Shown: positions 23,601 through 63,949 of the stretch, piece after piece
Position numbering within the stretch: the stretch's first letter is position 1
Layout: each line of letters begins with the position of its first letter
Sequence record: MH517022.1
Source of the DNA: Acinetobacter phage SH-Ab 15599
DNA length: 64,000 nt
Strand: one strand, 5' to 3'
Notes under the pieces: generated by a model
What the model was told of the DNA's origin: nothing
Seen by the model: the letters and a program-made list of their open reading frames with translations, nothing else
Database searches by the model: none
Position numbers and translations under genes: made by a program

Positions 23601-24002
23601 TCACACTTTCAACGCATAATACTTGTATCCTATTACTTTATCAGCATAGTTGACGTGTTGTATCTGAATGATTACATTACCAAACCAATTTGATGGTATT
23701 GAGAACAACCAAATACATTCACTGCCATTTACAAATTTGATTTCAGTCAATTCCATACGAGCTGTTGATTCAGTACCCACGGGTTGAATAAAGGCTCTTA
23801 ATGTATCTCCGTTCACCAATCCACTAAAAGATTTCAATGAAATGGTATGTTGAGTTGATTTTTTAATATCATTGACCTCAACATTATTCAACTTCACCAT
23901 TGGGACAACAGTAGAGGCTCTGGTCACTCTTGACACTTGAGCCATACCCGTTTTGAGAGGGTTGTTGTTATGTTTTACTGTAGCAACTACTGTAGCAGCC
24001 AT
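23601..24002 (-). CDS. small structural-module protein (about 134 aa; start MAATVV)
   Basis: Sits between the two large paralogues. The longer ORF would overlap the upstream gene. Confidence 0.45.
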   Translation of the reverse strand: MAATVVATVKHNNNPLKTGMAQVSRVTRASTVVPMVKLNNVEVNDIKKSTQHTISLKSFSGLVNGDTLRAFIQPVGTESTARMELTEIKFVNGSECIWLFSIPSNWFGNVIIQIQHVNYADKVIGYKYYALKV

Positions 24003-24004
24003 GT

Positions 24005-26437
24005 TTATCTCCCAGAAATCCAACCAGAATAGTTTCTGATATCTACATTATGTTCATTTGTTTCAATAATTTTACCCTTCAAACCGCCCTTGCCTGGAGC
24101 TAAAGCAACATACCAAGTACCAGTATAGTTGAATATTCCGTCACTGCCGTCGGCTCCAATGTCGCCGCCATTGCCTGGTTTCATAGGGCGCATAGTTGGG
24201 TCATACTGTTGAGGAGCCGTTGTAGCGTTCCCTACTGGTCCAACGTCTGTTTGAACTTCTTGTCCAGACGGGTATCGTCTATAAACTTTATCATTTTTGG
24301 AATAGGCTGAAAAGTCGTAAGCATCAGTCCAGATCGGCCAAGACTGTAGATCGGGAGAAATTAGAGTTTGAGGCGTGTACATCATTTTAGGCGTAATTCC
24401 ATAAGGAGCGCCGCCGCTTCCAGCTACAATAGGGTGCCAAGCGTTTCGGTTACTCATTTCAGTACTTGCGCCCACACCAGAAGCGCCACCTCCGCCGCCG
24501 CCTCCAGCTACAACTCCATAGTTCTCAAAGATCAAGAAATTGTTATTTGATCCAGATATACAACTCCCGCCATCCTCTCCATTAAAGTTTGTTGTATTCA
24601 AAGGGGATATTGCATATCCACCTTGACCACCTCTGCCCCAGACAGAACCAAAGTTTACATACTTGATCTTTGACCCATAAGGGAAATCTCCAACAGTGAT
24701 AGCTGAGATGGCAGTAGACGATGCTACAACAACCGTTCCATAGTTTTGAGTAAACTTGATGTTCACAGGGTTGGTTACATCTACGCCCTTTGACTTAGCA
24801 AAATTGTAAAGATTCAAATCAACCATATCTGTAGAAATGTTAATAACAATTTCATTTACAACTGGTTGGTTAAACAACAACGGATAATAAAAGCGCCCGT
24901 TATTATCCAGTGAAACATCTATCTCATTGGGAACGGAGTTGATAAGAGAGGATGCAAAGTCGGAACCTTCAAAGGAAAGTCTATATGTTTGCTGAGGGTC
25001 ATAAACAATACCCACGACCTGAACATATAATACAAATCCATCTTTCAGATCAGTGACAGGCATATTACCTTGGATATCAGAAGAGAAATATACATTAAAT
25101 TCAGGTGCAATTGAAGTATCTTGAATTATCATAGAAGCTGACACGCCAGAACCATTTTGTAATGTTAGGGTCATTGTTTCTTGACCTTCTGGTGTCATAT
25201 CTTTGATTACTGGAACATCTATTACACCAGAGGAGTTCATGATAGTGAAATTACCAGATAATGGGATACCAATATCGGTCTCTGTAACGCCAGTAATCAA
25301 AAATGGAATCAGCGTACCGTTAGGGACATTCAAAGTCGAAAGAACGAATCTTACAGTTTGCCCCTCCTCAACCGAAGTAACTGGAGTTGTATCTGACCCA
25401 TCTAAGCGTCCAGCATACATATTATATCTTGGCGCGTTAGAAGGAGCGTAAGCCTCTGATATGTTATAATTGATTACGCCCGCCCAAGCTGTCTTCAAAA
25501 CAATATCAAAGAATCCATAACCTCTATCAGCAATCTGAGGAGTTGGAGATAGATCAATGTTATCATATTGGGTAGACATATTGATAACATAAGCTTCGTT
25601 GGTAAGATCAATGTTGCCTACGCTTATTCTGATCAATTGGGTTCCAGTACCAGCTGCTACAAATTGAATACCACTTTTGACCAGTTTAGGATATTTGTCA
25701 TCACTTAATGCTTCCTCCCAACTTGTACCCGTTGATCTGAAATACATCTTTCTGTTTTCTGAGACAAATATCTGATTGACCTTATCGCCAAAGGCAAAGG
25801 TCATACAAACGCCAACCCCGTTGAAATCTGGTCTAGAATTAACAGAAGCTGGTTGACATAAATTGATGGAGTTTTCTTTGATATTATTCAAATCAACATT
25901 TGTAATGTCATCAACTCTTAGAATATTCTTTGGATTAATGATAGAGGCGTCAATATTATTAGTGTAATTGTTATAATTGAGATTTGGAGAGACTTCTATC
26001 TGTGAACCAATATGAACAATTGAGCAACTTAATGGGCCGTGAGTTCCAGCGCCGTTGGTTCCAATTTTCAATAACAAACCTACATCTGTTGATGCATTAG
26101 CTCTTAAATCAACATCTTTGAGATAAATTGGGCCTGGGTTTGAGATGCTCAAGATGTTGAGTGTGTTACTACCTGAATCAGCTGATTGTCTTCCATTAGC
26201 TGAAGCCAGGATCATGAGTTTTTCATTATCTGGGTTAGTGAATGTAATGAAATACAGACCACTTATGGTTTGTTTTGAGTCTACAACAAATAAATATTCA
26301 TCGCCATTAACAGGAATATTAGCAACATCCTTTCTTGAGCTGCCAAAATTTCTAGAGAATTTCAATCCATCGATACCAATGAGGCTTTTTGCTCCAACTC
26401 CTCTAGGGTAGATGGATGGTAATTTCACGTCAGCCAT
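24005..26437 (-). CDS. structural protein (810 aa), glycine-rich; paralogue of the 20755..23562 gene
   Basis: Shared N-terminal and central blocks plus Gly-rich tract (GGGGGGASGVGAS...GNGGDIGADGSDG). Confidence 0.65.
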   Translation of the reverse strand: MADVKLPSIYPRGVGAKSLIGIDGLKFSRNFGSSRKDVANIPVNGDEYLFVVDSKQTISGLYFITFTNPDNEKLMILASANGRQSADSGSNTLNILSISNPGPIYLKDVDLRANASTDVGLLLKIGTNGAGTHGPLSCSIVHIGSQIEVSPNLNYNNYTNNIDASIINPKNILRVDDITNVDLNNIKENSINLCQPASVNSRPDFNGVGVCMTFAFGDKVNQIFVSENRKMYFRSTGTSWEEALSDDKYPKLVKSGIQFVAAGTGTQLIRISVGNIDLTNEAYVINMSTQYDNIDLSPTPQIADRGYGFFDIVLKTAWAGVINYNISEAYAPSNAPRYNMYAGRLDGSDTTPVTSVEEGQTVRFVLSTLNVPNGTLIPFLITGVTETDIGIPLSGNFTIMNSSGVIDVPVIKDMTPEGQETMTLTLQNGSGVSASMIIQDTSIAPEFNVYFSSDIQGNMPVTDLKDGFVLYVQVVGIVYDPQQTYRLSFEGSDFASSLINSVPNEIDVSLDNNGRFYYPLLFNQPVVNEIVINISTDMVDLNLYNFAKSKGVDVTNPVNIKFTQNYGTVVVASSTAISAITVGDFPYGSKIKYVNFGSVWGRGGQGGYAISPLNTTNFNGEDGGSCISGSNNNFLIFENYGVVAGGGGGGGASGVGASTEMSNRNAWHPIVAGSGGAPYGITPKMMYTPQTLISPDLQSWPIWTDAYDFSAYSKNDKVYRRYPSGQEVQTDVGPVGNATTAPQQYDPTMRPMKPGNGGDIGADGSDGIFNYTGTWYVALAPGKGGLKGKIIETNEHNVDIRNYSGWISGR

Positions 26438-27269: not shown

Positions 27270-28730
27270 TCAAGGACTAGGCGTAGGTGTTACGGGCGCA
27301 CCCAAAGGGAATATTTTGTTTCCAACGCCCAAATACACTGAGTCATTATGAATGAACATCCCAGAGTATGTTGTTGGCATAGAATTCAAAGTTGGAACAA
27401 TCATACCAGCTGCAACATTGATTGGTGAGTTGAAAGATACCTCTCCAGCTGTACCTCCACTACCACCTTCCCCTCCACTTGGAGGTTGAACGTTGATTGC
27501 TCCAGAAAGACCTGCTAATGCCGCTCCAGCTGCACTGCCTGGGGCTAATGCGTTTGCGACCTTAGCAAGTTCTGATGAAGCTGCGTTCAACTGAGCAATA
27601 GGGGCTTTACAAGTCAACTCTTGAGTATCAATACTCTTGGCATCAACAGGTTGAGCAAATGCTGCCGGAGAGTTGACTTGAAGGTCTTTAGATTCAATAG
27701 TCATATTGTCGTTAGACATGACCTTTTGTCCAGTTTTCTCATAAGACTGACCTTCAACAATTTCAGCTTGGTCTTCCTTTTGAAGCTTTTGGACTGACCC
27801 ATTAGCCAACAAAAATAGGTCTTTATGCGCTTTGATTACAATATCTCCATCTGCGTGCATCTCAATATATGAGCCACTCATATGAAATATCATAATGCGT
27901 TCAACCCCAGGGGTATCGTCAATCTCAATACAGTGACCAGACGGAGATTGATACACCTTATTATGAGGATATTGCGGGGCTGCTCTACTTCTTGGTTCAG
28001 TTACACCTGAAGAACGAGAATTTGGGGTCGGTGAATCAGTAGAAGTACCAGACTCAGGGACAGCTTCATCCAAATCCTCAACTTCCTTTCCCGTGAGGAC
28101 ACTCAAAGCGCGTTTGTACATTGTAGTACGTTCTTCAAAATGGAGACTTGCTGCGTTGATTCGCTTAACAACAACAGCCCAGTTACCAGCATCGGCTTGT
28201 CTATTCAGAGATTTGTTACCCCAGAACCAACAAGCGGAAAGAGCCGCGTTTTGTTTCTGTTGTAAAGACTCTGGATTGTTTACAGCCCCAGAACTCGGTT
28301 CACTGCGTTGGAAATCGGCATAGTTCCCTCTGCCCGTCAATTGGATGATACCTTGTCCTCGATATCTCCAACCGTCTCCAGACGCTTCATTGCCATTACC
28401 AATCTTGTTAGCATAGACGTAGTTTGCAATCTTTTGAGGGTTGCGAGCATATGCATTAGCCTGAGCTGAGGTTTTGAACTTGCTAGGGAATACTTCCATC
28501 AAACGTTCAGCTGAATAATTGAGGTTCTCAACCAGTCTGCTAAAGTTACTTGATTCAACAGAAACATTTCCAAAGAACATTGCAATACGATACAACTTTA
28601 CAATCTGATACTTTTGCATTGAAGGCCAGAGTGCAGCATGCCAACCAGCTGCATTACTCGCACTCAAACCAAATATCTTCTGAACATGTTCTACAGTGAG
28701 AACAATATCCTTATTTTCTAATTCAGCCAT
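27270..28730 (-). CDS. virion-associated peptidoglycan hydrolase: GH19 glycosidase domain plus C-terminal extension
   Basis: GH19 signature YRGQGIIQLTGRGNY plus upstream GDGWRYRG. Starts 1 nt after the gp5-like ORF stop. C-terminus is Gly/Ala-rich. Confidence 0.65.
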   Translation of the reverse strand: MAELENKDIVLTVEHVQKIFGLSASNAAGWHAALWPSMQKYQIVKLYRIAMFFGNVSVESSNFSRLVENLNYSAERLMEVFPSKFKTSAQANAYARNPQKIANYVYANKIGNGNEASGDGWRYRGQGIIQLTGRGNYADFQRSEPSSGAVNNPESLQQKQNAALSACWFWGNKSLNRQADAGNWAVVVKRINAASLHFEERTTMYKRALSVLTGKEVEDLDEAVPESGTSTDSPTPNSRSSGVTEPRSRAAPQYPHNKVYQSPSGHCIEIDDTPGVERIMIFHMSGSYIEMHADGDIVIKAHKDLFLLANGSVQKLQKEDQAEIVEGQSYEKTGQKVMSNDNMTIESKDLQVNSPAAFAQPVDAKSIDTQELTCKAPIAQLNAASSELAKVANALAPGSAAGAALAGLSGAINVQPPSGGEGGSGGTAGEVSFNSPINVAAGMIVPTLNSMPTTYSGMFIHNDSVYLGVGNKIFPLGAPVTPTPSP

Positions 28731-28731
28731 G

Positions 28732-29700
28732 TTATTTCGCCTTTAAATTAGCAACATCTGGAAAGACTGCTGCAATGAGACTTGATCTAGCAAAGGTTGT
28801 TCTTGTAACTTCCCCGCCATTCTGTTTGTTCTTAGCCGATTGGTTACCACCCACAGCATGTATACGCCCATCTTTTTCATATTCACAGAAAAATACGTGA
28901 CCAGAAGATGCGCCCCTGTTACCCGCAATTACACAAATACTGCCTGGCGGAATAGGCTTCTGATTAAGAGTTGATTTACCGTATCTTGTATAAGAACGGG
29001 CTGCAGCTGAGCCAGATCCTTTGATACCAACCTTTTGTAAACACCAACCCACAAAGGATGCACACCATGGAGTCTCTCCTCCCCATTTAGATGAACCACC
29101 GCCTTTGGCGTGATACTCTCTAATTTGAGCAGGGTTATCTCTTTCATCAACACCCAATTGAGAAATAGCTACAGCCAACCAAGGATAGTTTTTCAACTCC
29201 TCTGGACTAATCTGCGTATCATTTGGATTGTTAGCGCCGTCAATGTCACCAGAAATGGCATTTGCGTCTTTCTGAGCATATACATCTGATGAAGTTACAA
29301 TACCACGGGCCAAGGGGTTGACGTCATGGTCAGTACCATTTGGAAAGGGAACTGAAGGGTCAATGAGATTGTTACGCTGTCCGGCAATAGTGAATTGAAC
29401 TTCCCATTCTTGAAAGTCATTTGATGACTTAGGTCTCAATCTGACCAAAGAACCTTCTAGAAGTCCTAGAGGGGCAGTTCCTAAACCACTTACAAATGGA
29501 TTTGTAGCTGGTACTGCTATAGTACACCAAGGTAATTTTTCTTTCGGGACCTCTGCTGGGTTCAAAGAATGAATACCAAAAATGCGAACTCTCACGCGTC
29601 CACACTCTTTTGGATCCATAAGGTCTTCAACAATCCCTATATGATCTCCACAATACAATGGTAATTCTTTTCTTGACATAATAAATGCCCGATAACACAA
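28732..29700 (-). CDS. baseplate hub protein with gp5-like N-terminal OB domain fused to a CHAP peptidase domain
   Basis: GIVEDLMDPKECGRVRVRIFGIHS matches the T4 gp5 N-terminus. C-terminal CHAP motifs: catalytic Cys in TPWCASFVGWCLQ and His in SGHVFFCEY. Confidence 0.75.
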   Translation of the reverse strand: MCYRAFIMSRKELPLYCGDHIGIVEDLMDPKECGRVRVRIFGIHSLNPAEVPKEKLPWCTIAVPATNPFVSGLGTAPLGLLEGSLVRLRPKSSNDFQEWEVQFTIAGQRNNLIDPSVPFPNGTDHDVNPLARGIVTSSDVYAQKDANAISGDIDGANNPNDTQISPEELKNYPWLAVAISQLGVDERDNPAQIREYHAKGGGSSKWGGETPWCASFVGWCLQKVGIKGSGSAAARSYTRYGKSTLNQKPIPPGSICVIAGNRGASSGHVFFCEYEKDGRIHAVGGNQSAKNKQNGGEVTRTTFARSSLIAAVFPDVANLKAK

Positions 29701-49759: not shown

Positions 49760-52381
49760 TTATCCTTGGCAATTCGAGCATTCTTTATCTTCAAACAGTG
49801 TATCTGCTTGAGCTTTATGTTCTTTGTAAAGGGCTTGTACTTCTTTCATACCGCCGATCCACTCTCCGTTCAAGAACACTTGAGGCACAGAACGAATAGA
49901 TGGGTCACCTGTAACTTCAGCCGCCGTTTTACCAACTTGTTGTAAATCAACAAATTTGAAATCAAGACCCATATCGCTTAACATACGTTTAACAGTGTTA
50001 CAGTTCGGACAAACCTTGGTACCATATACAATATTTTCACCCTTCTCTTTTTCTTTCTTCTCTGAATCTTTCAGAGCTTTACGAACAAGAGCTTGAGATA
50101 ATGTTTCAATCTCAACTTCAGGTTTTGTACGGTAGTAATAGAGAGATTTCAAACCCCACAACCAAGCGTGATAGTGACAAGCGAACACGTGGTTGATATC
50201 GCTGCCTGGTTTGAAGAACAAGTTCAGAGACTGAGCCTGACAGATATTAGGTTGACGGTCAGCAGCTAAACGTACAATACACATCTGATCAATTTCAAAT
50301 GCAGTTTTGAAGATTGCTCGTTCTAAATCTGTTAATTGTTTAAGATGAGCTACAGAACCTTCATTGTTAGCAATGTCTGTCCACGTTTCTTCATTATCAA
50401 TACCGTATTTTTGGAGAATCTCCTTCAAATACGGGTTGCGGCGTTCAAAGATACCAACACGAGTTTCTTTAGTGTAGATGTTAGCATACTCTGGCTCACA
50501 ACTAGCAGATGTTGTTAACATATCTGCGTTGTTTGAGTTAGGAGCAATAGCCAACAAGTGCATATTACGACGACCAACGTGAGGGTGATCCGTAGATGAT
50601 GCAGCATCTGGACACTCACCGCGCTCAGCCCCTAGACGAAGACTTTCAGCAACAGCTTGTTCTTTGATAGAACGGAACAAATCAATATTGAATTGTTTAG
50701 CTTCAGGAGACTCGAAAGGCATACCATGTTTCTGGAATGCATAGTGAAGACCCATTACACCAAGACCGATAGAACGTTCTTGTTTAGCTGAGTTAATCAC
50801 TTTATGTAATGCTAATTTGATCAATTCGCGATGACGCGGATTTGTATAACGGTTAGCAATCCAATCGGCGGTACGAATGAAGTGTTCAAGAGCGTTGTCC
50901 AAAGCGCGGACTAAGTCACCAACTAATGTAGGAGCCCACACGTCTGAATATTCGGCATTAAGAGAAGATAAACAACAAACTGGAGTACGGTCATCATTAG
51001 CAGGTAATGTAATTTCAGTACAGTTTGAAACTAACAACATCTTGTGGCTATGACCTTCACCACTGATGCTGATATAGAAGTTATGGTTGTCTTCAACTTC
51101 TAAACAATAAACTTCTTTTATTGCGCCGTCAAAAATTAGTTCAGCAACAATTGGATCAGAGTTTACATTTGATACATTACCATTGCGATACAAACGAGCA
51201 TCAAGACGTTTACCAATAGAATCTTTGGCTTTTACGCGGTGACCCTGAGTTGTAAACAATTCGTGATCTTTGGTACATTGAAAACGTTCACCAGAGTTTA
51301 GAACAACTGTAACAAGCTCTTTACGACCTGTTAAACGTGCAGTTGCTGTCTTCACTTCTGGGATTACTCGTCCACCAACTACTTTCCCTGACCAGACTTT
51401 GAAAGGAATTGAACCAGATGATTCACGAGCCAATTGTTTAACTGTAATTGGTTTACGACCGTCAGCTACCATCACCAATGTATCTTCAGATAAACAAAGG
51501 TTTGATGCGTATGAGTAAAGACCTAGACGCTTTTGAGCTTCTGGTAATGCGCGGTTAGCATTTCCGCGGAAATACATAAACGGTTCGCCAGTACGTCCAC
51601 GCTCAGTGAGCATAGATTGGAAGTATTCAGCTGGGTTTACTGTATCAATTACGCGTTTAGTATGAGGGTCGATCAAGTGATATTCTTTTTCGCCGTCACG
51701 GATACGTTCCATCAAGTCGTCATCAATAGAGAACCCGATATGAATGTTCTCAGCCTTACGGTTTGAGTCACCTGTTGGAGTACGAATTTTCAAGAACTCT
51801 TTAGCTGAACCGTGGTTAGCAGATAACCACGCAGCTTCAGCTCCGCGACGCACTTTACCTTGTTTCCAAGCTAAGATAGAAGCATCATCTTCAATTACAA
51901 ATGGAATTGGGCCAGGGCTTTTATCAGATACATAACGGACATCAAAATATTTCCCGATGCCACCGCCGATGACAGAGAGTAAAGATGTTTCCAATTTGCC
52001 CATAAGCAAAGATGGGATTGAGTCACTAACCATTGGTAGGAAACAACTGATGTTTTGTGATCCGTTATGTTCGAAATCATCTTCATGATCCCAAATAGGT
52101 AAACTTTGATTTGCCATTCCAGCTACCCAAATTTCTTCTTTGAGAAGAGGCGCATTGGAAAGCATTGGAGAAGACCACATGAAATGTAGTAAAGAGTTTG
52201 CATCATATAGGCGTTGTGCATGAGCTAAGTCATCAGACCAAGCCACGCAAGCTCGGGCTAGTCGCTCTTGTATTGTTTCTTTTCCACTTGTGTAGAATCC
52301 CTTGATTAAGTCTTTAGCAGGTTCTGTAAGGAGTTCATCTCGACTATCGTCAATTTGAATTCCAAGATAAACACGTGACAT
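49760..52381 (-). CDS. nrdA: ribonucleotide reductase class I alpha subunit with an in-frame mini-intein and a C-terminal glutaredoxin-like domain
   Basis: Catalytic-site sequence SNL|C..TEI is split by an intein. C-terminus VCPNC...VPQVFLNGEWIGG is a glutaredoxin fold. Confidence 0.9.
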   Translation of the reverse strand: MSRVYLGIQIDDSRDELLTEPAKDLIKGFYTSGKETIQERLARACVAWSDDLAHAQRLYDANSLLHFMWSSPMLSNAPLLKEEIWVAGMANQSLPIWDHEDDFEHNGSQNISCFLPMVSDSIPSLLMGKLETSLLSVIGGGIGKYFDVRYVSDKSPGPIPFVIEDDASILAWKQGKVRRGAEAAWLSANHGSAKEFLKIRTPTGDSNRKAENIHIGFSIDDDLMERIRDGEKEYHLIDPHTKRVIDTVNPAEYFQSMLTERGRTGEPFMYFRGNANRALPEAQKRLGLYSYASNLCLSEDTLVMVADGRKPITVKQLARESSGSIPFKVWSGKVVGGRVIPEVKTATARLTGRKELVTVVLNSGERFQCTKDHELFTTQGHRVKAKDSIGKRLDARLYRNGNVSNVNSDPIVAELIFDGAIKEVYCLEVEDNHNFYISISGEGHSHKMLLVSNCTEITLPANDDRTPVCCLSSLNAEYSDVWAPTLVGDLVRALDNALEHFIRTADWIANRYTNPRHRELIKLALHKVINSAKQERSIGLGVMGLHYAFQKHGMPFESPEAKQFNIDLFRSIKEQAVAESLRLGAERGECPDAASSTDHPHVGRRNMHLLAIAPNSNNADMLTTSASCEPEYANIYTKETRVGIFERRNPYLKEILQKYGIDNEETWTDIANNEGSVAHLKQLTDLERAIFKTAFEIDQMCIVRLAADRQPNICQAQSLNLFFKPGSDINHVFACHYHAWLWGLKSLYYYRTKPEVEIETLSQALVRKALKDSEKKEKEKGENIVYGTKVCPNCNTVKRMLSDMGLDFKFVDLQQVGKTAAEVTGDPSIRSVPQVFLNGEWIGGMKEVQALYKEHKAQADTLFEDKECSNCQG
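51023..51496 (-). mobile_element. mini-intein (about 158 aa, no homing endonuclease domain) inserted just before the NrdA catalytic cysteine
   Basis: Block A CLSEDTLV, Block B TKDHELFT, Block F VYCLEVEDNHNFYI, and C-terminal ...LLVSN|C. Flanking exteins rejoin as YSYASNL-CTEITLP, the conserved RNR active-site loop. Confidence 0.75.
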
Positions 52382-54876: not shown

Positions 54877-55488
54877 TCACTTAGGATATTTCGCCCAAGA
54901 CAATTGGTAGTGTGGCCCGTCTTTGAAAGACTTCCAATCGCCTCCCCATTCCAGACCTTCAATGTTAAGCTCTTTAGCAGCTTGCTTCATAGCTTCTTCA
55001 ATCATGTAGTAGTATTTCCAATCCCAAGAAACAACTCCATTAGGGTAGGCAATAAGGTCTACTGCATGACCAGTGAGATGACGGCTGTTCAGAGTCTGAG
55101 TTGCGCCCTGTTTGATTAGAACCTTCTGACGTTCTAAAGTGCGCATACCCTCTCCAACCTGAAACTGAATGTTGGACAACTGAATGGCGCGTTTCACAAT
55201 CTTTTGAAGGATTGGGTTGATTTCTGACAGACGCTTGAGAGAAGTTTCGCTCAAAGAGAAATCAGTTGTAGGTTTGAGACCCAACTGAAGTCCTAAATGA
55301 GCAGCTGTCTTATCTCCTACAATACCATCAAATGGCTTGATATTATTATCGGTCTGATATTTCTTGACAGCGTCTTTCGTACCCTGACCAAAGATATCAT
55401 CAATGCGTTTGTTGTAATATCCTTGTTGATGAAGAAGCTCTTGAAGCTCCTTCACCTTCGGGCTTTTATCTCCGAGTTTCAAAATCAT
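54877..55488 (-). CDS. endolysin: peptidoglycan-binding domain plus M15 (L-alanyl-D-glutamate peptidase) catalytic domain
   Basis: N-terminal PG_binding_1-like repeat (LKLGDKSPKVKELQELL...YQTDNNIKPFDGIVGDKT). C-terminal SRHLTGHAVDL...DWGGDW...DGPHYQL zinc-peptidase motifs. Confidence 0.75.
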   Translation of the reverse strand: MILKLGDKSPKVKELQELLHQQGYYNKRIDDIFGQGTKDAVKKYQTDNNIKPFDGIVGDKTAAHLGLQLGLKPTTDFSLSETSLKRLSEINPILQKIVKRAIQLSNIQFQVGEGMRTLERQKVLIKQGATQTLNSRHLTGHAVDLIAYPNGVVSWDWKYYYMIEEAMKQAAKELNIEGLEWGGDWKSFKDGPHYQLSWAKYPK

Positions 55489-55525: not shown

Positions 55526-58327
55526 TTAAACCATTTGGATTATTAAATTTCCCGATTCCACAGTCACAGATACAGCGGTTGGGTTAGTGTGGTAGACAGT
55601 GAAATTGTCAACAGAAGTTACTTCGGCATAAAACCTAGTTCCGCCTTTCGGTTTATCCATTTCAACCGCTAATCTATCGCCAAGTTTTAAACCAGTTATA
55701 GTTCCTGTTCGAGCTACAACTGTAGCTCCCGCGGATAAAGCTGCAGGAGAATACAATAATTTTACTGGCTTAGCTTCTATTACTCTTAAAACAGCATCTG
55801 TACCGACTACACCAGCTTGCTCCACTATATACTTATAAGGCGCACCAGCACCAGCGCCTAAATTATAAACATAATCATTAGCACTAACCTTGGCGCCAGT
55901 AATTAAGGTTCCAGCCTGCCATTCTCTGTTTCGCCCAGAGCACTTAATAGAAGAACCACCGCTTACTGCAACTGTAATCGTTCCAGATACAACATCATAA
56001 GAATCTAATTCTACTGGGTCTGAAATGGGATTAGAGTTGTTTACTAGGAAATTGTTTGAATAAGAAGGATCCAATACCATAATCTTTCCTACTTTTAGCG
56101 TTTTGCCTAAACTAGCAGTATTAGCAGATGAAACAACGCAGTAAGAATTTCCATGTTCAGTTACGATAATCTCATCAACTATTGTATTTAAAGCTAATTC
56201 ATTTCTTAAAGCTGTTCTAAATACGGTGTTGGAACTAGTGACTCCATATCTAATACATTCCATTCTACCCACTTTAGTATTTTTGGGTAATTTGGATGGA
56301 TCATTACCCGTTCCGATGACATTAACTGGATTAATTTTGGAATCTTTACTTATTAAATTATCAACTACTACATTGTTGGCTAAATTTCTGACGTATAAAC
56401 TAGAATAGAAATATTGACTTTCTGCATTTATTACTCTAAAATTACCTCCTCCGTTATCTCCGTTTATGAGAATATTAGACGCATTTCCAGTTTCTAATTT
56501 GCCAAAACAATTAATTGCCTCCACTAAACCAGAAATCTTAGCTAGATAATCGTCTGGAGTTGGAGTAAAACCAGCATTAGTAGTATCGTCAACAGTTGCA
56601 TATAGAGCATTGCCAAGCATACCTATACCTAAAGCATAAGAAGTTCCTTGTATTGAACCCACTTGGATATTTCTCATTCTATTCCTCTTGTCTTTCTCAT
56701 TTGCGTAAGCAAATCCTAGATCGCCAGCAGTTAAGAATAATAGACCTTTCCCTGTTATAGTATGATCCAAAATAGATCCTTCAATCTTTCCAATCTTAAT
56801 ATCGTAACCAGCAGAAATCAAAACCACTCCGGAATAATCATTAGTGTCGCAAGTTAAATTTCCAGCAGAAATTTCCTCGATTATACAATCGTGAGGGTGA
56901 GTAGTAGGTAACCAACCAACCTTATGTCTGTAGGTTCCGTTGTCATTATAATGATCTTGGAAGTTGCCCCAATGAGCCATAAAGACTCTACCAATAACTG
57001 CAGAATCGCCGCATTCGATCCTCTTTCCCCTAACTAGATTCGCTCCCCCAGCCATCACAAATCCATTACAATTAAAATGCCCCCCCTTTAAGATTAGGGT
57101 GTCAAAATAAAAACCAGAAATTTGTGGTTCTCTATTAGTGAAACTATCTATTCTGACGTGACACTTTTCTCCCCACCCTACAGTTGGATTTCCCATGTCT
57201 ACTGTAAGAGTTCCAATTATTCTAACATTAGATTCCGGAGCTAAACCAGATGCACTAGCACTTTGACTTGCGGCGCCTACTTGCTTTAGTGTTGAATTGT
57301 TACTAAACCATACCAAACCACTTTTAGGTTTAAATTCTTGATTAACTTCGTATACTTTTTCAGAAGTTAATAGAATACCATTGTTAGCTACTGCATAATC
57401 GGAAGCTAAGATAATATCGTCTCCAAACATCTCTGGTAGGACAATTAATTTCGATCTGATATCAAAATAACTTTTAGCTGTAATACCGTTCCACTCAACC
57501 AACTCTGAGTTAGTCGTTTTAAACTTCCAACCCGTCATATCTACATTAGGATTTTTCTTGTTACCATTTACAGTAGAATACACTTCCCCCGTATTGTTGT
57601 CAAGACGGATCACTGCCCCAAACGGATAACCACCTATTTTAAGGAATTTGTCTTCCCAATAGTTCTCATTGGTAACTCGGACAAGATCCAATTTTTCATC
57701 CAGTTTATCTCTGGTATAGGTCTTATTTTCCAATAGCGCTGCAATACCATCTGCACTTAATGTCTCAGATTTAGTATAGACATTCGTTTTGTCAGCTTTT
57801 GAATCGTATAAATCTTGAATAACTGGACTCAAATCTGGAATCTTATCATAAGATGGTAACTGTTCTTGAATAATTTTACCATCTTCTCCAAGCGTAGCCT
57901 TTGAACGCTCAAGTTGATCAGTACGCGTTACCATATCATGACGAGCTTCATTAGCTACATCATTTAGAGCAGTTTCAAATTCTGGATAAGAACCGAGAGA
58001 TGGTAGTTGATTTGTAGGGACCTTCCCTTCAACCAAGTCAGCTTTACGAGCTGCTACATCATCGGTATATGCTTCTGCGTAGTCTTTAGCAGTTTGAAGA
58101 TTATTGGTTAGAGCAAGATCAACCTGAGAGAGTTTGAGGTTGACTTCTTGAATATGTTGACTAATGAAGTCTGGCAGTTGAGATGAAACTAATTTGTTGT
58201 CATCCCCCAAATCAGCTTTTTTAACCAAACCTGCGCTCAATTGCTCCTTTGTAGCAAAGAAGCTTGCAATCTCACCTTCCATGGTGAGTTCGCTTATCAA
58301 GCATTCCAATCTTAGAGTCTGTGTCAT
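55526..58327 (-). CDS. tail fibre / tailspike 1 with a parallel beta-helix-like central region
   Basis: N-terminal repeats KADLVEGKVPTNQLP / EDGKIIQEQLPSYDKIP shared with the other two fibres. Gly/Asn-rich beta-helix-type repeats. 933 aa. Confidence 0.75.
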   Translation of the reverse strand: MTQTLRLECLISELTMEGEIASFFATKEQLSAGLVKKADLGDDNKLVSSQLPDFISQHIQEVNLKLSQVDLALTNNLQTAKDYAEAYTDDVAARKADLVEGKVPTNQLPSLGSYPEFETALNDVANEARHDMVTRTDQLERSKATLGEDGKIIQEQLPSYDKIPDLSPVIQDLYDSKADKTNVYTKSETLSADGIAALLENKTYTRDKLDEKLDLVRVTNENYWEDKFLKIGGYPFGAVIRLDNNTGEVYSTVNGNKKNPNVDMTGWKFKTTNSELVEWNGITAKSYFDIRSKLIVLPEMFGDDIILASDYAVANNGILLTSEKVYEVNQEFKPKSGLVWFSNNSTLKQVGAASQSASASGLAPESNVRIIGTLTVDMGNPTVGWGEKCHVRIDSFTNREPQISGFYFDTLILKGGHFNCNGFVMAGGANLVRGKRIECGDSAVIGRVFMAHWGNFQDHYNDNGTYRHKVGWLPTTHPHDCIIEEISAGNLTCDTNDYSGVVLISAGYDIKIGKIEGSILDHTITGKGLLFLTAGDLGFAYANEKDKRNRMRNIQVGSIQGTSYALGIGMLGNALYATVDDTTNAGFTPTPDDYLAKISGLVEAINCFGKLETGNASNILINGDNGGGNFRVINAESQYFYSSLYVRNLANNVVVDNLISKDSKINPVNVIGTGNDPSKLPKNTKVGRMECIRYGVTSSNTVFRTALRNELALNTIVDEIIVTEHGNSYCVVSSANTASLGKTLKVGKIMVLDPSYSNNFLVNNSNPISDPVELDSYDVVSGTITVAVSGGSSIKCSGRNREWQAGTLITGAKVSANDYVYNLGAGAGAPYKYIVEQAGVVGTDAVLRVIEAKPVKLLYSPAALSAGATVVARTGTITGLKLGDRLAVEMDKPKGGTRFYAEVTSVDNFTVYHTNPTAVSVTVESGNLIIQMV

Positions 58328-58348
58328 GAGGAGAAATCCGTAACTATT

Positions 58349-58365
58349 GAATTTCTCCTATTTAT
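58349..58365 (-). promoter_or_regulatory. late-promoter-like AACATAAATAGGAG, 31 nt upstream of the fibre start
   Basis: Plus strand reads ctcctatttatgtt. Confidence 0.3.
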
Positions 58366-58596
58366 GTTCTAAATGTAACTGTTGTTTGCCTCATATTACA
58401 ATAAATCCATGATGATCTTCCACTAAGCTTGAATGACGTCTTCCATGCGCCGTTTAGTAAAATATAAGAGTTATACCCTGACCCGCTTTACGCAATTAAC
58501 CCAATAGATATACGTCAACTACATGAACTTTTAGCCACTCCAGAATCATTCCAACAAATTCCACTATAGAACATCCTATATAAGTTTTACTTATAA

Positions 58597-58620
58597 TAGC
58601 AAAAAACCCCCGAAGGGGTT
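58597..58620 (-). terminator. rho-independent terminator (AACCCC-TTCG-GGGGTT plus TTTTTTGC on the minus strand)
   Basis: Located after the stop of the 58626 gene. Confidence 0.65.
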
Positions 58621-58625
58621 AGTTA

Positions 58626-61019
58626 TTAACTTGTAGCAGTAAAGGCGACTGTAAACCTATGCGGGTCAACCAGCGTCCCCGCTGCATCGCGCCAAAATAC
58701 CTTAAATCCCGCTGCTTCGGTGAAAGAAGTCCATGATCCAGGATATGTTTCAATCATTTGAACTCCATGAGTAGCACCTGTTCCAGTCCCCAAACGAGAA
58801 CCCATTAAGGGTGAGCCAACAACAATATGCCCATTTGTGATTACTGATGTATTTCCAGAAACTCGTTCAACTCGGTATACTCCTGTTGACTCTTTTACGA
58901 TCTGCCATCCGTTGTTATTTTGAGGTGTGCTGAATGACTGATCATAAGTCAGCATCATTGGTGCATAGAATGCACCCGCATTATTTGAGCCGTGGTTATA
59001 TGTTCCCCACTTGCGAGAAAGCTTTGTATAGGTGTCTGATGCAAGGTATTGTGCTCCAGAGCCATCTGCGCCAATAACACGTCTCTTAACTAATGGTGTT
59101 ACGGTAGATGAACTAATGTGCGTTTCATCAATCGTTGCATTGCCAGTCTTAAAGCCACTTGGCAGCATAAGCATTTTTGCCTTATTGCCAGCATTCACAA
59201 TAGCGATACCTTCTGCACTGACTGAAACACCACCATAGTTATTTGTTGGTAAGGAGTCCAAAGTGGGCGAAGTTTTTGATGTCCACCCGCCTAATAGTTT
59301 CGTGTATGCATAAAAGCTATTTCCATAACAGCTATTGGTTCCAGTAACCTCCAGCCAATCTTTAGATGTCTCTGTCTTTAGGTTTTCACACCAAAATTTA
59401 CCAAAACCGCAATGTGCTACTGTTCGAGCCTTGATACCTCCATTCATGCTTTCAAAAATAATATTTCCAAAATCACATCCATGAATATCTCTATCGAAAA
59501 TCATCGAATAGCCATCACCTAACTGGAAATAAATATTGTGGAATGTTCCAGTTGTGCTAACTCGGTTCAATGGGTCTTCACAATAAATTCCAGCATTTCG
59601 CGAGTAATATAGCCAAGCATTTGTGAAATTGAATCCCACAAGTGCTTGCTTAACAACAATTTGATTATAAAAATTAACAAGGGTAATGTGGTCAATATTA
59701 GCTAAGTACCCATCTATTTCAATGAATGATACTTGCTTGCCAGCGCCATTTGAACATCGAGCTGTTACATTCTGGATTGTAGGTCCGCAGTTAATGAATG
59801 CCGACTTGTTTGTAAGTGATGGAGAGCTACCATCCACATCAATACAACCAAGATTGTAGTAAAATTCGGAAACTTTCCCACAACCGTTACCAACCAAACC
59901 CTTACCTTTAAGGTCTACTTGGTTTTTTATTATGTATCGACCTTTTGCACCCAGATATAAATTTTGTCCAGTCAATGGACTATCACAGTAGGCCTGAAAA
60001 GCGGCACTATCATCAGTAATACCATCACCCTTTGCTCCAAAATTATCAACAGTAATAACATTTCCGTTAATTACTGATTGCGACAATCCGAAAAGATCGT
60101 CAAAAATATTCTTTGTAGAGTTAACCTTAACCCATCCCGTCATATCCACATTTGGGTCTGTGGTATTGTTTGGCATTGTATTTTTAACGATATCCCCATT
60201 TTCCAACATTACTCTGTCATTTAGAGCGTATCCACCAGATTTCGATTTCCATTTATAATCAATCTGAGACGTATGATAAATTTTCGATGACCAACCAGTA
60301 GTATTAACGTTTGGATTAGCTGCATTATCATCAACATTGTTAACGTATTCCACTCCGCTATCCAACAATATTCTAGAACCCTTTTTATAAGGCGCAAGAG
60401 TTGAGACATATAACGGAGTTTCGCCTTTATTATAATGAACAATAGCGCTTTCAGAAGCTTCCAAACGATTATCAAAATCATTTACTTGTGCATTGACCTG
60501 TTGTTCAAACTCGGAGAATGTATTATCAATATACTCTCTTTGTTCATTTACTTTGCTATCAACGTAAATTTTTGTATTGTTTTCTGATGTACCGATAGCT
60601 TGCATAAGAGTTTGATTGCCAGCGTCAATCTCTTGACGCACCTCGGTAAACTCATTTGCAATATTTTGTTCAAAATTTACTGGATATGGTAATTGTTGAT
60701 GAGGGATTTTCCCTTCAACAAGATCAGCTTTTTTAGCCAACTCAGTTGATAATTTGGTGTCTGTATAGGATTGAGAGTCCGTTACGGCTTGGGTTTTACT
60801 AGCAACGATATCTTCCTCAATATCTTCAAATTTTTCCGGTAAACCAGCAATCTGATCGTAATCTGGTAATTGAGAAGCGACAATTTTTCCATCTTCGCCT
60901 AAAGAGACGCGCTTGGATAATTCACTATCTACATAATCTTTAGTTGGGAATTCAGACGCAATAACCCCATTAGGGTCAAGATCGTCAATGGCTACTTCGA
61001 TTTTAAGTGTCTTTGACAT
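58626..61019 (-). CDS. tailspike 2 with a pectate-lyase-superfamily beta-helix (putative polysaccharide depolymerase)
   Basis: DNFGAKGDGITDDSAAFQAY hallmark of pectate lyase 3 / P22-like tailspikes. N-terminal fibre repeats. Start may be 61034 (longest ORF) or 61019, which is favoured by the spacing of the CATAAATA motif at 61047-61054. Confidence 0.75.
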   Translation of the reverse strand: MSKTLKIEVAIDDLDPNGVIASEFPTKDYVDSELSKRVSLGEDGKIVASQLPDYDQIAGLPEKFEDIEEDIVASKTQAVTDSQSYTDTKLSTELAKKADLVEGKIPHQQLPYPVNFEQNIANEFTEVRQEIDAGNQTLMQAIGTSENNTKIYVDSKVNEQREYIDNTFSEFEQQVNAQVNDFDNRLEASESAIVHYNKGETPLYVSTLAPYKKGSRILLDSGVEYVNNVDDNAANPNVNTTGWSSKIYHTSQIDYKWKSKSGGYALNDRVMLENGDIVKNTMPNNTTDPNVDMTGWVKVNSTKNIFDDLFGLSQSVINGNVITVDNFGAKGDGITDDSAAFQAYCDSPLTGQNLYLGAKGRYIIKNQVDLKGKGLVGNGCGKVSEFYYNLGCIDVDGSSPSLTNKSAFINCGPTIQNVTARCSNGAGKQVSFIEIDGYLANIDHITLVNFYNQIVVKQALVGFNFTNAWLYYSRNAGIYCEDPLNRVSTTGTFHNIYFQLGDGYSMIFDRDIHGCDFGNIIFESMNGGIKARTVAHCGFGKFWCENLKTETSKDWLEVTGTNSCYGNSFYAYTKLLGGWTSKTSPTLDSLPTNNYGGVSVSAEGIAIVNAGNKAKMLMLPSGFKTGNATIDETHISSSTVTPLVKRRVIGADGSGAQYLASDTYTKLSRKWGTYNHGSNNAGAFYAPMMLTYDQSFSTPQNNNGWQIVKESTGVYRVERVSGNTSVITNGHIVVGSPLMGSRLGTGTGATHGVQMIETYPGSWTSFTEAAGFKVFWRDAAGTLVDPHRFTVAFTATS

Positions 61020-61046
61020 GGGAGTGGATTCCATAAACGTTTGAAC

Positions 61047-61054
61047 TATTTATG
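61047..61054 (-). promoter_or_regulatory. late-promoter-like CATAAATA upstream of tailspike 2
   Basis: Plus strand reads tatttatg. Confidence 0.3.
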
Positions 61055-61069
61055 GAATCCACTTTTCAA

Positions 61070-63949
61070 TTAGTACATCATGCGTTTAATAATTTCGCTG
61101 CAGATGTAGTTCGATTGTAAAAGTTTACCAGCTGCATTAGGGTGTAGACCGTCTCTCAAGAATGTGCCGGCATCTGGGTCTGTTGGATTCGCCTTCCAAA
61201 CTTCTAATTCTTTAATAATTCCAGAATTAGCATATTGGTCAATTACATTAAACCCATATTGACGAGCCATTCTTGCAAGGTTCGTATTCAAATCTTTTCG
61301 AGCTTGTGTCTCAAGATCAGCGCGTTGTAAAGGTAAGCAATAGAAGCAGACCGCATTTGGCCATTTCTGTCTTAAAGTCCATAACGCCCAACGCATAGAT
61401 TCCAAAGTAAGCGCTCTGTTTAAATCATCCAGAGTTGGTTTGCTCATAGCAGTATCAAAATCACCTAGATTCACGCCTGCATCATTTGTGCCACAAGCAA
61501 GTACAATAACCCCTGGATTAAATCCGCTAGCAATAGCAGTATTGATTTGATGAGAAATCTTCTGCCATGTTAACTGCCCCGCATATTCCCTGAAAGCAGC
61601 TCCGCTTCTACCAACGTTCATATAACCGCCCATTTTCAGGGTAACATATGCATAGGTTGGCCAGTTAGGATACCAGTTAGGATCATAATACATTCCATTT
61701 TCAACATCGCAAGTTACTGTAATGGAATCTCCAATCATCAAATAAGAAGCACCAAATGCTCTTGAAACCATTGAGCTGGAACCACCGCCACTTTCGCCGC
61801 CTCTGATGATATCAACGCCGTTTATACCAGATATGCCTGGTTTAAATGCTTCATATGCGGTTGCAACAGTTCCAGATTCGATTTGTGTGGCGCTAATATC
61901 GAAAATTGTAGCAGTACGTTGAAGTAAACTCACTTGGAACCATTTAGCATTTGCTGGAACCGTAATTGTATAGAAAGAATCTGGATTTGGGACTTGAGCT
62001 TTTAAAATAAGCGTATTGTTCGCATCTAGGAATCTGTAATATCTAGGAATTTCTGGGTTTGGTTGAAGACCACTCAATGTAATATTTTGTAAACCACTCA
62101 CATTGATCAAATCTGTCGTAATACTTTGAGCCTGTGGTAATAAAGTACCATCACCATACACTTCAGTGCCCATAAGGATAGTGGCAGGGTTGAGAAGGTT
62201 TTTTGCTATTGCCTCATACCCGAGTTTTAAGTCAGTCTGTTTTATATGACTGCCATGAATACCAATCACATCTCCTTTACTGAATGCAGTATAGGAAGTT
62301 ATCACGCTTCCATATTCAATTTGAGCTGTAGAAGTATTCAAAGGATCTGAGTTACGTTGTTTGATAGACAACTGGAACCAAACAGCGTTAGCTGGTACCG
62401 TAAGAACTCTTTGATTGACTAAACCAATACTCGTTATTGTACCGACTAGATTCTCATCTTTATCTAAAAATCTGTAAAGACGCCCAATTTGAGGGTTTAG
62501 TTGTAGACCAGATATTGCAATTGAAGACGCACCTCTTACATCGATATAATCAGTTGTTACACTGTTCGCCTCAGCTATCAATCCAAGCGTAGCGTGCAAT
62601 TCATATCCCACTAAAAGATTCTGTGTATCCAAAATATTCTTAGTGGTAGAAGCGTAAATTGGGTGGGTGAGAGTTTTGATCGAATTTTTGATTGTATTAA
62701 CAATATTAGTAGTCAATACAGAGTCATCGCTATAATAAGTCCAAGGAGTCCAAACATTTGCTGTATCGCATAAACGCATTGCGAAAGCTTTAGCATTCAT
62801 ACACACTACCATCTGACAAACTACCGTTGCAGATACTGGCAATACAAATAATTGACCCCATTGGTTGGTATAACTTGGTTTATTAGCGCAACTATTCCAA
62901 ACTGTACCGCTCACAAACGTATGAAGACCGTATGTTTTCAGTGAGTTGAAGTCGACTGCTGAAGAAATTACCATTGGATTAAACATTCTGTTAGAATCCG
63001 CATAACTCTTAGCTAAAGCATATGGATCATAAGCAGATTTAGAGAACGCTGTACCATTCCACTGCCAATCTCCGTTGTTAGAGGCAGTTGAGTCATTCGT
63101 TACTGTGATTTTAGAATTGACTGGTAGAGTCGCTTTGTTAGCGTCCATCTCCGCATATGTTTTATAAGCTTTGTTGCCAGTACCAATAGCATTGATCTGA
63201 GCTTGTAGAACATTTTCTTGAGATACTGCTCTGTCTCGTTCTTCTATAATAGTATTGTTAATTTTCAATACCTGAGCGTCGGTATCGGTTTTATTGTAAA
63301 CGTCGGTTATATTAGCTTTGTTCGCAACTTTATTGTTTGTAGAGATCATATATGAATTAAAATCATTATTCATATTCTCTTGAAAATCATTTTGTTGATC
63401 CGTAATTGTTTCAACAAAATGATTTAATTCAGCATCTCTGGTAACGCCATCTGGAATTACAGTAATTGGTAACTTTCCAGACGCGTCCATCTTAGGAACT
63501 TTTACGCTGAGCTCATCGACTTTTGAATCAGTATATTGTTTAGATGCCAACTTCGCTGCGTCAACAGCCTCTTTAGCCCCAGGAACGTGTTTGAATTCAG
63601 TTGCTTGAGTATTTGGTACGCGGCCAGATACCAAGTCGGCTTTATTCTGAAGACCTGCAGTCATTTGTTGTCCGAGATTTTGAGACGCAGTTGCAACCTT
63701 TGTATCAGTCTCATCTCTCAATGTAGTTGCCAACTCATCAAATTTTTGAGTAACGCCGTTTAGATTTTGAAAGTCTGGCAGCTGATCTGGATCAACCTTT
63801 CCATCTTGAAGCAAGTCAGCCTTCTTAGCTTGATCAACCTCATATTGAGATTGGGCTACATATTCTGAAAGAACAATGCCGTCATCCCCGACATCAGCCA
63901 CCACAACGTCTAGCTTTAAATTGTTATCGGCCATGATCAGCCTCTCCAC
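61070..63949 (-). CDS. tail fibre 3 with a C-terminal SGNH/GDSL hydrolase (esterase) domain
   Basis: C-terminal blocks IGDSIT (I), GTND (III) and DGLHPN (V). N-terminal KADLLQDGKVDPDQLPDF repeats. GGAGAGG RBS. Confidence 0.75.
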   Translation of the reverse strand: MERLIMADNNLKLDVVVADVGDDGIVLSEYVAQSQYEVDQAKKADLLQDGKVDPDQLPDFQNLNGVTQKFDELATTLRDETDTKVATASQNLGQQMTAGLQNKADLVSGRVPNTQATEFKHVPGAKEAVDAAKLASKQYTDSKVDELSVKVPKMDASGKLPITVIPDGVTRDAELNHFVETITDQQNDFQENMNNDFNSYMISTNNKVANKANITDVYNKTDTDAQVLKINNTIIEERDRAVSQENVLQAQINAIGTGNKAYKTYAEMDANKATLPVNSKITVTNDSTASNNGDWQWNGTAFSKSAYDPYALAKSYADSNRMFNPMVISSAVDFNSLKTYGLHTFVSGTVWNSCANKPSYTNQWGQLFVLPVSATVVCQMVVCMNAKAFAMRLCDTANVWTPWTYYSDDSVLTTNIVNTIKNSIKTLTHPIYASTTKNILDTQNLLVGYELHATLGLIAEANSVTTDYIDVRGASSIAISGLQLNPQIGRLYRFLDKDENLVGTITSIGLVNQRVLTVPANAVWFQLSIKQRNSDPLNTSTAQIEYGSVITSYTAFSKGDVIGIHGSHIKQTDLKLGYEAIAKNLLNPATILMGTEVYGDGTLLPQAQSITTDLINVSGLQNITLSGLQPNPEIPRYYRFLDANNTLILKAQVPNPDSFYTITVPANAKWFQVSLLQRTATIFDISATQIESGTVATAYEAFKPGISGINGVDIIRGGESGGGSSSMVSRAFGASYLMIGDSITVTCDVENGMYYDPNWYPNWPTYAYVTLKMGGYMNVGRSGAAFREYAGQLTWQKISHQINTAIASGFNPGVIVLACGTNDAGVNLGDFDTAMSKPTLDDLNRALTLESMRWALWTLRQKWPNAVCFYCLPLQRADLETQARKDLNTNLARMARQYGFNVIDQYANSGIIKELEVWKANPTDPDAGTFLRDGLHPNAAGKLLQSNYICSEIIKRMMY

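Follow-up and report, generated by a model that had tools for sequence, protein, structure and literature searches.

Acinetobacter baumannii phage SH-Ab 15599 (sequence record MH517022.1) carries, within the 64,000-nt stretch of DNA that we analyzed (hereafter the window), a cluster of three minus-strand open reading frames (ORFs) that occupies positions 55526-63949. A first-pass annotation, made from the sequence alone, had listed these ORFs (here A, B and C) as three large minus-strand genes for receptor-binding proteins (RBPs) with paralogous heads and different enzymatic bodies, and all three were recovered by ORF calling. They correspond to gp195, gp196 and gp197 of the phage (Table 1). 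Read from Met6, C is 100% identical to SHAb15599_00197 (954 aa), a 'hypothetical protein' on a 143,204-bp contig, and residues 16-933 of A match a 918-aa database protein (P0050) exactly; the exact-match comparison covered A and C, and B was equated with gp196 by its fit with the published description. The start of B is probably Met6, at coordinate 61019, where its orthologues begin and where the first-pass annotation had also placed it. In C the database protein likewise begins at Met6 (coordinate 63934), behind a GGAGAGG Shine-Dalgarno sequence. The 15 codons upstream of Met16 in A (58283-58327, MTQTLRLECLISELT) are kept in all A-class orthologues, so that the 918-aa entry, which starts at Met16, probably begins too late and the true start is probably 58327. 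Outside the cluster, the DNA of the window matches a single phage of the annotated collection, Acinetobacter phage nACB2 (74.9% identity over parts), in which the three-gene cluster is likewise present with a peptidase gene behind it.

Table 1. Features of the three-gene cluster and of related loci in the 64,000-nt window of phage SH-Ab 15599
Feature	Position	Strand	Description
ORF A (gp195)	55526..58327	(-)	933 aa; A-class head and predicted APK77/AbP2-type depolymerase body
ORF B (gp196)	58626..61034	(-)	802 aa; B-class head and predicted phiAB6-type K2 capsule glycosidase body
ORF C (gp197)	61070..63949	(-)	959 aa from GTG, 954 aa from Met6; C-class head, beta-sandwich modules, C-terminal SGNH esterase
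A head	57683..58327	(-)	aa 1 to ~215; conserved N-terminal peptide, then helical stretches punctuated by three KADL/GK.P/QLP hairpin knots
B head	60390..61034	(-)	aa 1 to ~215; from blastp, alignments, tree and shuffles
C head	63200..63949	(-)	aa 1 to ~250; three GK/GR..P knots
A neck module	57518..57655	(-)	aa ~225-270, GGYPFGAVIRLDN...NPNVDMTGW; junction to exchangeable body
B neck modules, two in tandem	60120..60389	(-)	aa ~216-252 NPNVNTTGW; aa ~262-305 DPNVDMTGW
C neck module	62990..63187	(-)	aa ~255-320, GNKAYKTYAEMDA...VTNDSTASNNGDWQWNG; 'AYKTYAEMDA...NNGDWQWNG'
B catalytic dyad codons	59385..59453	(-)	E528 (59451-59453), E550 (59385-59387), equivalent to phiAB6 Glu425, Glu447
C tandem duplication	61814..62662	(-)	~140-aa beta-sandwich, aa 430-571 and 573-712
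C SGNH/GDSL esterase domain	61073..61747	(-)	aa 735-959; G740-D741-S742, G820-x-N822-D823, D933-x-x-H936
Gene A leader	58328..58365	(-)	CATAAATAG, then 11-bp hairpin abutting the ATG and holding the only GGAG
Terminator-like hairpin	58605..58620	(-)	AACCCCTTCGGGGGTT and T-run, 6 nt past the B stop codon; within DNA common to other phages' K2 tailspike genes
Endolysin	54877..55488	(-)	PG_binding_1 and Peptidase_M15_4 (Pfam); directly downstream of A
D, orf209 homologue	15852-20663		34.6% identical to CBA120 orf209 over its full length, 1626 aligned columns
Fibre E	20755-23562	(-)	935 aa; GP38 adhesin-like glycine-rich tip (Pfam)
Small ORF between E and F	23601-24023		140 aa
Fibre F	24005-26437	(-)	810 aa; GP38 adhesin-like glycine-rich tip (Pfam)

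The N-terminal heads of the three proteins are paralogous. By blastp, A aligns with B at E=4e-22 (29.5% identity over 308 columns), B with C at E=2e-11 and A with C at E=3e-7. Over the first ~215 aa, local alignment scores range from 134 to 196, compared with 38-40 +/- 7 in 1000 shuffles (z = 13.5-22.8), and for the first 36 residues, which lie ahead of any repeat, the observed score was reached by at most one in 2000 shuffles. The N-termini therefore resemble each other well beyond chance, and the motifs quoted in the first-pass annotation are present where it had placed them. The KADL-type motif reads KADLVEGKVPTNQLP in A (aa 95-109), KADLVEGKIPHQQLP in B and KADLVSGRVPNTQAT in C, while the motif LGEDGKI..QLP.YD.I is found at aa 146-163 of A and aa 45-62 of B with the counterpart LLQDGKVDPDQLPDFQNL in C. 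Alignment with the nACB2 proteins gives a common plan, in which an N-terminal stretch with the consensus M-T-x-N-L-K-I-E-V-L-x-x-D-x-x-x-x-G-x-V-x-S-x-F is followed by knot 1 (KKADL..DGK...QLPDF), a helix, knot 2 (KADLV.GKVP..QLP) and a second helix, with a third knot in A and C. The secondary structure of an AlphaFold2 (AF2) monomer of the A head, with helices at residues 53-96 and 115-142 and short strands at the motifs, fits this plan. No Pfam family matched the head, its profile found nothing below E=0.28 among PDB sequences, and a Foldseek search of the PDB with the AF2 model gave nothing below E=6.

To map how widely the head occurs, we made an exhaustive hidden Markov model search of 1.84 billion representatives with a threshold of E<=0.001. 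It returned 209 proteins, about 33 of which have the whole head at their N-terminus and, fragments aside, are ~800-1055 aa long; most of the other matches consist of repeated KADLV.GKVP..QLP copies only. A word-indexed protein search found no match for the B head alone and four short proteins only for a 14-sequence head profile. In a neighbour-joining tree, 37 heads fall into three clean clades, A, B and C, each of which contains the SH-Ab 15599 protein, nACB2-like proteins (those of IMG/VR contig L002 among them) and a third lineage, which is metagenomic. Identity is 43-53% between orthologous heads and 25-35% between paralogous ones; aa 6-319 of C are 39.8% identical to nACB2 gp166. The gene order C-B-A-endolysin recurs in nACB2 and L002, and the pairing of A with the endolysin directly after it is also kept in a contig of the third lineage (L060). 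The triplication of the head is old, with the three classes kept apart since, and the simplest explanation for this separation would be three distinct attachment sites. The A-class gene of L060, a low-coverage ENA contig, is a complete 267-aa ORF (910-1713) with a head, no body and the endolysin directly after it, a product either of truncation in nature or of faulty assembly. A scan of JGI metagenomes for the context of the third lineage gave a repeat-level match only, and two short ENA contigs gave partial context. Two IMG/VR loci of 154-161 kb (L003 and L005) were considered as relatives and set aside, their matches being at the level of the repeat in ORF-dense, apparently high-GC contigs.

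Behind the head, each protein carries one or two copies of a short neck module. The pattern 'GGYP...LDN...NPNVDMTGW' occurs once in A and twice in B, and it is the only segment that hhalign finds in common between the bodies of A and B. In A it matches the N-terminal domain of the solved Acinetobacter tailspikes 24qi and 24qj, and the similarity of A to AbP2 starts there; the similarity of B to phiAB6 starts within the second of its modules. The tailspikes of SWH-Ab-1, Phab24, Aristophanes and PD-6A3, whose tblastn matches to C span aa 185-318 only, share its neck module, which is also present in two further proteins (P0017 and P0018). As judged from these alignments, the body junctions coincide with the neck modules. 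The bodies beyond them are shuffled. Among 34 head-bearing proteins, the regions past residue 300 form ~32 unrelated clusters, whose Pfam matches include esterases, beta-helices and a BNR/sialidase-like body, and one body (L002_A and P0074, 85% identical) is joined to heads of two classes, A in one phage and B in a second. The bodies of the trio are likewise found on other anchors: that of A (aa 230-933) on Obolenskvirus (49% identity) and Friunavirus anchors (42%), that of B on Friunavirus and Obolenskvirus anchors, with DNA 80-84% identical to their K2 tailspike genes, and that of C on at least eight other N-termini, one of them in a siphovirus-like prophage tail module of A. calcoaceticus. 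By megablast, the matches of B to K2 tailspike genes start near 60200 and continue to around 58500, 100-126 nt beyond its stop codon. Since the shared DNA passes the stop codon and takes in the terminator-like hairpin behind it, the exchanged cassette brings its own 3' flank, and with a DNA identity to phiAB6 of only ~84% the transfer is not recent.

The body of B closely matches a tailspike of solved structure. Residues 261-802 align with chain positions 178-719 of the phiAB6 tailspike (PDB 5JS4) at 1131 bits with only scattered substitutions, and the homology is full-length across the receptor-binding, prism and C-terminal domains. Pfam assigns PF20745 (TSP_Ig-like) and PF12708 (Pect-lyase_RHGA_epim, aa 327-425), the latter just passing at 30.4 bits against a cut-off of 27. 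The phiAB6 tailspike family has been shown by experiment to act as a retaining glycoside hydrolase and not a lyase, with Glu425 and Glu447 proven by mutagenesis and roles described for further residues (PMC5314372). In B, E528, E550, H541, N614 and A615 are identical to Glu425, Glu447, His438, Asn511 and Ala512 of phiAB6, and 15 of the 16 mapped phiAB6 residues (catalytic, pseudaminic acid pocket and sugar contact) are kept. The label 'pectate-lyase-type' given to B in the first-pass annotation fits the fold family; because the closest characterised relative, the phiAB6 enzyme, is a retaining hydrolase, 'pectate lyase' names the fold of B only. We predict from this homology that B is a phiAB6-type retaining glycosidase directed at the pseudaminic-acid-containing K2 capsule. 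The two proteins can be aligned end to end over the neck, the beta-helix, the two beta-prisms and the C-terminal domain. In place of the podovirus particle-binding domain that makes up the first ~157 residues of phiAB6, B has the 260-aa B-class head and an extra neck copy.

For the body of A, tblastn finds homology across the entire receptor-binding part, with matches to the AbP2/MRABphi22 tail fibres (49% identity, 75% of A covered) and the APK77 tailspike (42% identity, 71% covered). A four-sequence alignment of aa 225-933 has 200+ invariant columns, with identities of 50% (AbP2/MRABphi22) and 40% (APK77), and A matches phrog_25305 'tail fiber protein' at E=1.8e-273. Pfam gave no match for A, and beyond the neck its catalytic body found no relative among solved structures. 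We assign A to the APK77/AbP2 family as a putative depolymerase, on the strength of 40-50% identity to annotated or characterised spikes. The description of A as Gly/Asn-rich is weak, its glycine (10.7%) and asparagine (8.2%) contents being about as in B.

ORF C ends in an SGNH esterase, as had been claimed. Pfam Lipase_GDSL_2 (PF13472) matches aa 739-941 at E=3.5e-15 (57.4 bits against a cut-off of 32.9), and all eight residues of block I (GDS), block III (GxND) and block V (DxxH) are invariant across all 46 homologues with coverage of this part, so that catalytic motifs are present in C as well as in B with its glutamate dyad. An AF2 model of aa 320-959 (predicted local distance difference test score, pLDDT, 85) begins with a small beta domain and a helix, continues with two tandem ~140-aa beta-sandwiches and ends, after a Gly/Ser linker, in the SGNH domain. 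The last is a three-layer alpha/beta/alpha fold modelled at a pLDDT of about 90-97 over most of its length; its Foldseek matches include 3dc7 (E=3.8e-9, template modelling score 0.74), sialate and peptidoglycan O-acetylesterases and GDSL esterases. The two beta-sandwiches are a duplication, with a local alignment score of 261 against 29.8 +/- 4.8 for shuffles, and both are modelled as all-beta domains (pLDDT mostly 85-93). The Foldseek matches of C also include CE2 esterases, in which a beta-sandwich is paired with an SGNH domain, and the modelled pair is probably carbohydrate-binding. The architecture of C is common to many phage proteins. In the Vi-antigen acetyl esterase spikes of ViI-like phages, an SGNH-type esterase modifies a surface polysaccharide and does not cleave it. 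C resembles the capsule deacetylase gp41 of Aristophanes, as cited in PMC11126041, in being a spike that ends in an SGNH-type esterase, and it shares its neck module with that phage. It differs from the Aristophanes and ViI-like spikes in the tandem beta-sandwich pair upstream of the SGNH domain, and no sequence similarity was detectable between its catalytic body and these esterase spikes. C would most likely be a capsule O-deacetylase, a role predicted only from the spike context and from its structural neighbours among the carbohydrate, sialate and peptidoglycan O-acetylesterases.

On this evidence, the trio very probably represents three virion tailspike proteins of A. baumannii phage SH-Ab 15599, each made of a head, a neck and an exchangeable enzymatic body. 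The head would comprise ~170-250 aa, with a conserved N-terminal peptide of ~25 residues and helical stretches with two or three intervening 'KADL-x2-GK-x-P-x2-QLP' hairpin knots. The neck, a short module also present in unrelated Acinetobacter phage tailspikes, would mark the point at which bodies are swapped by recombination. The body would be a depolymerase in A, a K2 glycosidase in B and, in C, three beta-sandwich modules (one small, then the tandem pair) with an SGNH esterase. Each tailspike protein would form a homotrimer and each head class would take its own baseplate site, so that the virion might bear three enzymes simultaneously, each opening a different capsule chemistry, or with the esterase readying a substrate. 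A broad or multi-step host range, as the first-pass annotation proposed, might be inferred from such an arrangement. A heterotrimer of the three heads in one branched fibre was also considered and rejected on reasoning, since the phiAB6-type body is an obligate homotrimer whose binding groove lies between subunits (PMC5314372).

Several points weigh against this reading. The AF2 monomer of the head is of low confidence (mean pLDDT 66.6, predicted template modelling score 0.26, pLDDT <50 for aa 1-22), so that the coiled-coil and knot architecture and the trimer state are only inferred, and no docking partner of the heads was found in the window. In neither our analysis nor the literature passages on this phage does an experiment place the whole trio in the virion or demonstrate that its members act as enzymes, and the passages on the isolation host report its capsule type as unknown (PMC11126041). 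Many kinds of ester are substrates of SGNH enzymes such as that of C. Finally, the published assignment of gp195 to K77 appears weak, because the body of A is only 40-42% identical to APK77 and specificity is not transferable at 40%.

The most serious alternative concerns how the spikes are attached. SH-Ab 15599 groups with the Ackermannviridae, and branched tailspike morphology at its tail ends has been reported by electron microscopy (PMC8878043, 2022). Like CBA120 (PMC8432352), it is a myovirus under Ackermannviridae with tandem enzymatic tailspikes, an orf209 homologue (D) and conserved N-termini joined to exchangeable C-terminal receptor modules, and in CBA120 too some heads are paralogous (those of tailspike proteins TSP1 and TSP3). 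In CBA120, TSP1-4 lie directly behind orf209. In SH-Ab 15599 this canonical layout of four tandem tailspike genes is not found: there are three spikes and not four, ~30 kb from the orf209-linked locus and beside the endolysin gene, all with mutually paralogous heads, and the positions directly behind D that TSP1-4 occupy in CBA120 hold two non-enzymatic fibres (E and F) with gp38-like tips. E and F are paralogous to each other, with an N-terminal region of ~490 aa in common (E=7e-55), and their nACB2 orthologues (gp125 and gp127) have hypothetical-protein annotations. E and F are probably additional receptor-binding fibres, which would give five RBPs in all. The XD1/XD2 modules are preserved in all Ackermannviridae analyzed in the study of that complex, which does not mention SH-Ab 15599 (PMC8432352). 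At the level of sequence, the defining XD (gp10-like) and TD modules were not detected in the trio. Searches of the A, B and C heads against CBA120 TSP N-termini gave no match by blastp or tblastn, and hhalign, as a sequence-level test only, gave probabilities of 0.08% for the TSP1/TSP3 N-termini (TD1/TD2) and 0.05% for those of TSP2/4 (XD1/XD2). In a tblastn search of all phages with the TSP4 N-terminus of CBA120, the ten genera listed at the top did not include Acinetobacter, which is a weak negative.

The trio could accordingly be read as a highly diverged CBA120-type branched complex, in which the heads are TSP1/TSP3-type clients docked on gp10-like domains of other proteins, most plausibly E and F. 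The presence of D and the position of E and F at the canonical tailspike locus fit such a complex, E and F share their N-terminal region much as TSP2 and TSP4 share XD domains, and the TSP1 and TSP3 heads of CBA120, 69% identical, set a precedent for clients with related heads. We nevertheless consider it unlikely, given that the heads show no sequence or profile similarity to either pair of CBA120 N-termini (hhalign <=0.1%), that the N-termini of E and F have no similarity to TSP2/4 or to the other CBA120 TSP N-termini by blastp, tblastn or hhalign, that E and F have no Pfam gp9 or gp10 match, and that each has a gp38-like adhesin tip and looks like a separate fibre. A somewhat better, still tentative proposal is that the SH-Ab 15599/nACB2 clade has swapped gp10-like (XD/TD) branching for an undescribed anchoring. 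Three slots would then correspond to the three orthologous head classes, each head being an N-terminal docking peptide and a knotted coiled coil for which there is neither a Pfam model nor a solved structure; bodies would be imported from podoviruses, myoviruses and prophages through the neck modules, and with the tailspike locus taken by the two gp38-like-tipped fibres the virion would carry five RBPs. Other multi-depolymerase phages, such as Acinetobacter TaPaz with two spikes and the Klebsiella multi-spike phages (PMC8432352), also bear several spikes per virion and exchange cassettes at conserved junctions; the gp10-like anchor domains of the Klebsiella phages were not detected in SH-Ab 15599, whose head family is without a Pfam model or solved structure.

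A second alternative accepts only the two depolymerases as virion tailspikes and takes C for a soluble or lysis-associated esterase or lipase with fibre-gene ancestry. The annotations of C as 'hypothetical' and of its nACB2 counterpart as 'putative tail with lipase activity' would allow this, as would the adjoining endolysin and a 2022 survey that counted only two depolymerases for SH-Ab 15599 (PMC8878043). C has, however, a complete head, of a separate orthologous class that three lineages have kept, and a neck module common to bona fide tailspikes including that of Aristophanes; homologues of its body lie within prophage tail modules, and reading of its N-terminus revealed no signal peptide-like or membrane feature. 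We regard a soluble role for C as quite improbable.

The KADL..GK.P..QLP motif itself is a generic fibre repeat, short and widespread in long fibrous proteins of many origins. Of 118 long proteins from the profile search that are otherwise unrelated (P0051 and P0083-P0199), 96 contain it as KADLV.GKVP..QLP, with up to 16 profile-matching stretches in a single 3523-aa protein. That protein also carries CBM_5_12 domains. No Pfam model covers the repeat, apart from a weak 'Phage tail repeat like' match in one protein only. Since the motif is generic in unrelated long proteins, the paralogy of the three genes rests on the whole ~170-aa head and not on the motif. That the N-terminal likeness is this repeat and nothing else, the genes not being true paralogues, is scarcely credible: the reading is already refuted by blastp, by the head tree with its three orthologous clades and conserved gene order, and by the shuffles of the 36 residues that precede any repeat, and the alignments cover 145-308 columns.

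Elements that may control expression lie around gene A. The spacer before it is 298 bp long, and its leader contains CATAAATAG, which resembles a T4-type late promoter, ahead of a hairpin with an RNA folding energy of -13.8 kcal/mol (z = -3.0). The leaders of nACB2 and L002 (L001 6240-6289; L002 9215-9257) have the same CATAAATAG and, in the equivalent place, a different 7-bp stem (AGTTCAA/TTGAACT), and the hairpin may be a conserved translational control element. Elsewhere in the window, a minus-strand gene at 49760-52381 encodes a ribonucleotide reductase large subunit with an apparent mini-intein at the NLC|...|CTEI active-site motif, for which the Pfam Intein_splicing match is weak and below the cut-off, and with a fused C-terminal glutaredoxin domain (PF00462, E=1.2e-10). 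Two adjacent tail-lysozyme-type genes are located at 27270-29700 on the minus strand: the product of one (486 aa) has no Pfam match, with an nACB2 counterpart annotated as 'tail associated lysozyme', and that of the other (322 aa) has a Gp5 OB domain and a CHAP domain.

The trio has been described before. Two studies (Viruses 2023 15:643, PMC10057805; Viruses 2024 16:771, PMC11126041) report, in their passages on these phages, gp195, gp196 and gp197 of SH-Ab 15599 and gp164, gp165 and gp166 of nACB2. Section 3.4.3 and Table 3 of the latter give gp195 as APK77-like with K77 predicted and gp196 as phiAB6-like with K2 predicted, with AlphaFold models, and state that the first 314 aa of gp197 resemble nACB2 gp166 and that its body is similar to GDSL esterases of Acinetobacter; a pectin-lyase fold has also been listed for gp196 (PMC11058221, 2024). 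The object is the same, with two predicted capsular depolymerases and one GDSL esterase, and the interpretation given in those passages is that several capsules are recognised. The reading in the first-pass annotation, a modular set of several RBPs whose heads are paralogous and whose enzymatic bodies differ, fits every test made here and agrees with this reading as far as those passages go (PMC10057805, PMC11126041). As the trio is already published, the observation is a correct rediscovery. The passages on the trio in these accounts do not mention that the heads are paralogous and fall into three orthologous classes, that canonical XD/TD modules are absent, or that two fibres with gp38-like tips stand at the canonical TSP locus. 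What remains new is modest and consists of the three head classes as sockets, the non-canonical anchor and the two extra fibres at the canonical locus.

Capsule types of A. baumannii limit phage therapy, and a phage with three capsule enzymes would be a template for a broad or engineered host range, as has already been argued in print. For the design of chimeric spikes, a CBA120-type attachment architecture should not be assumed. The practical gain would be a map of the junctions for body exchange, comprising the neck modules and a 3' boundary beyond the terminator, together with three head classes that may serve as conserved 'sockets' taking dozens of unrelated bodies.

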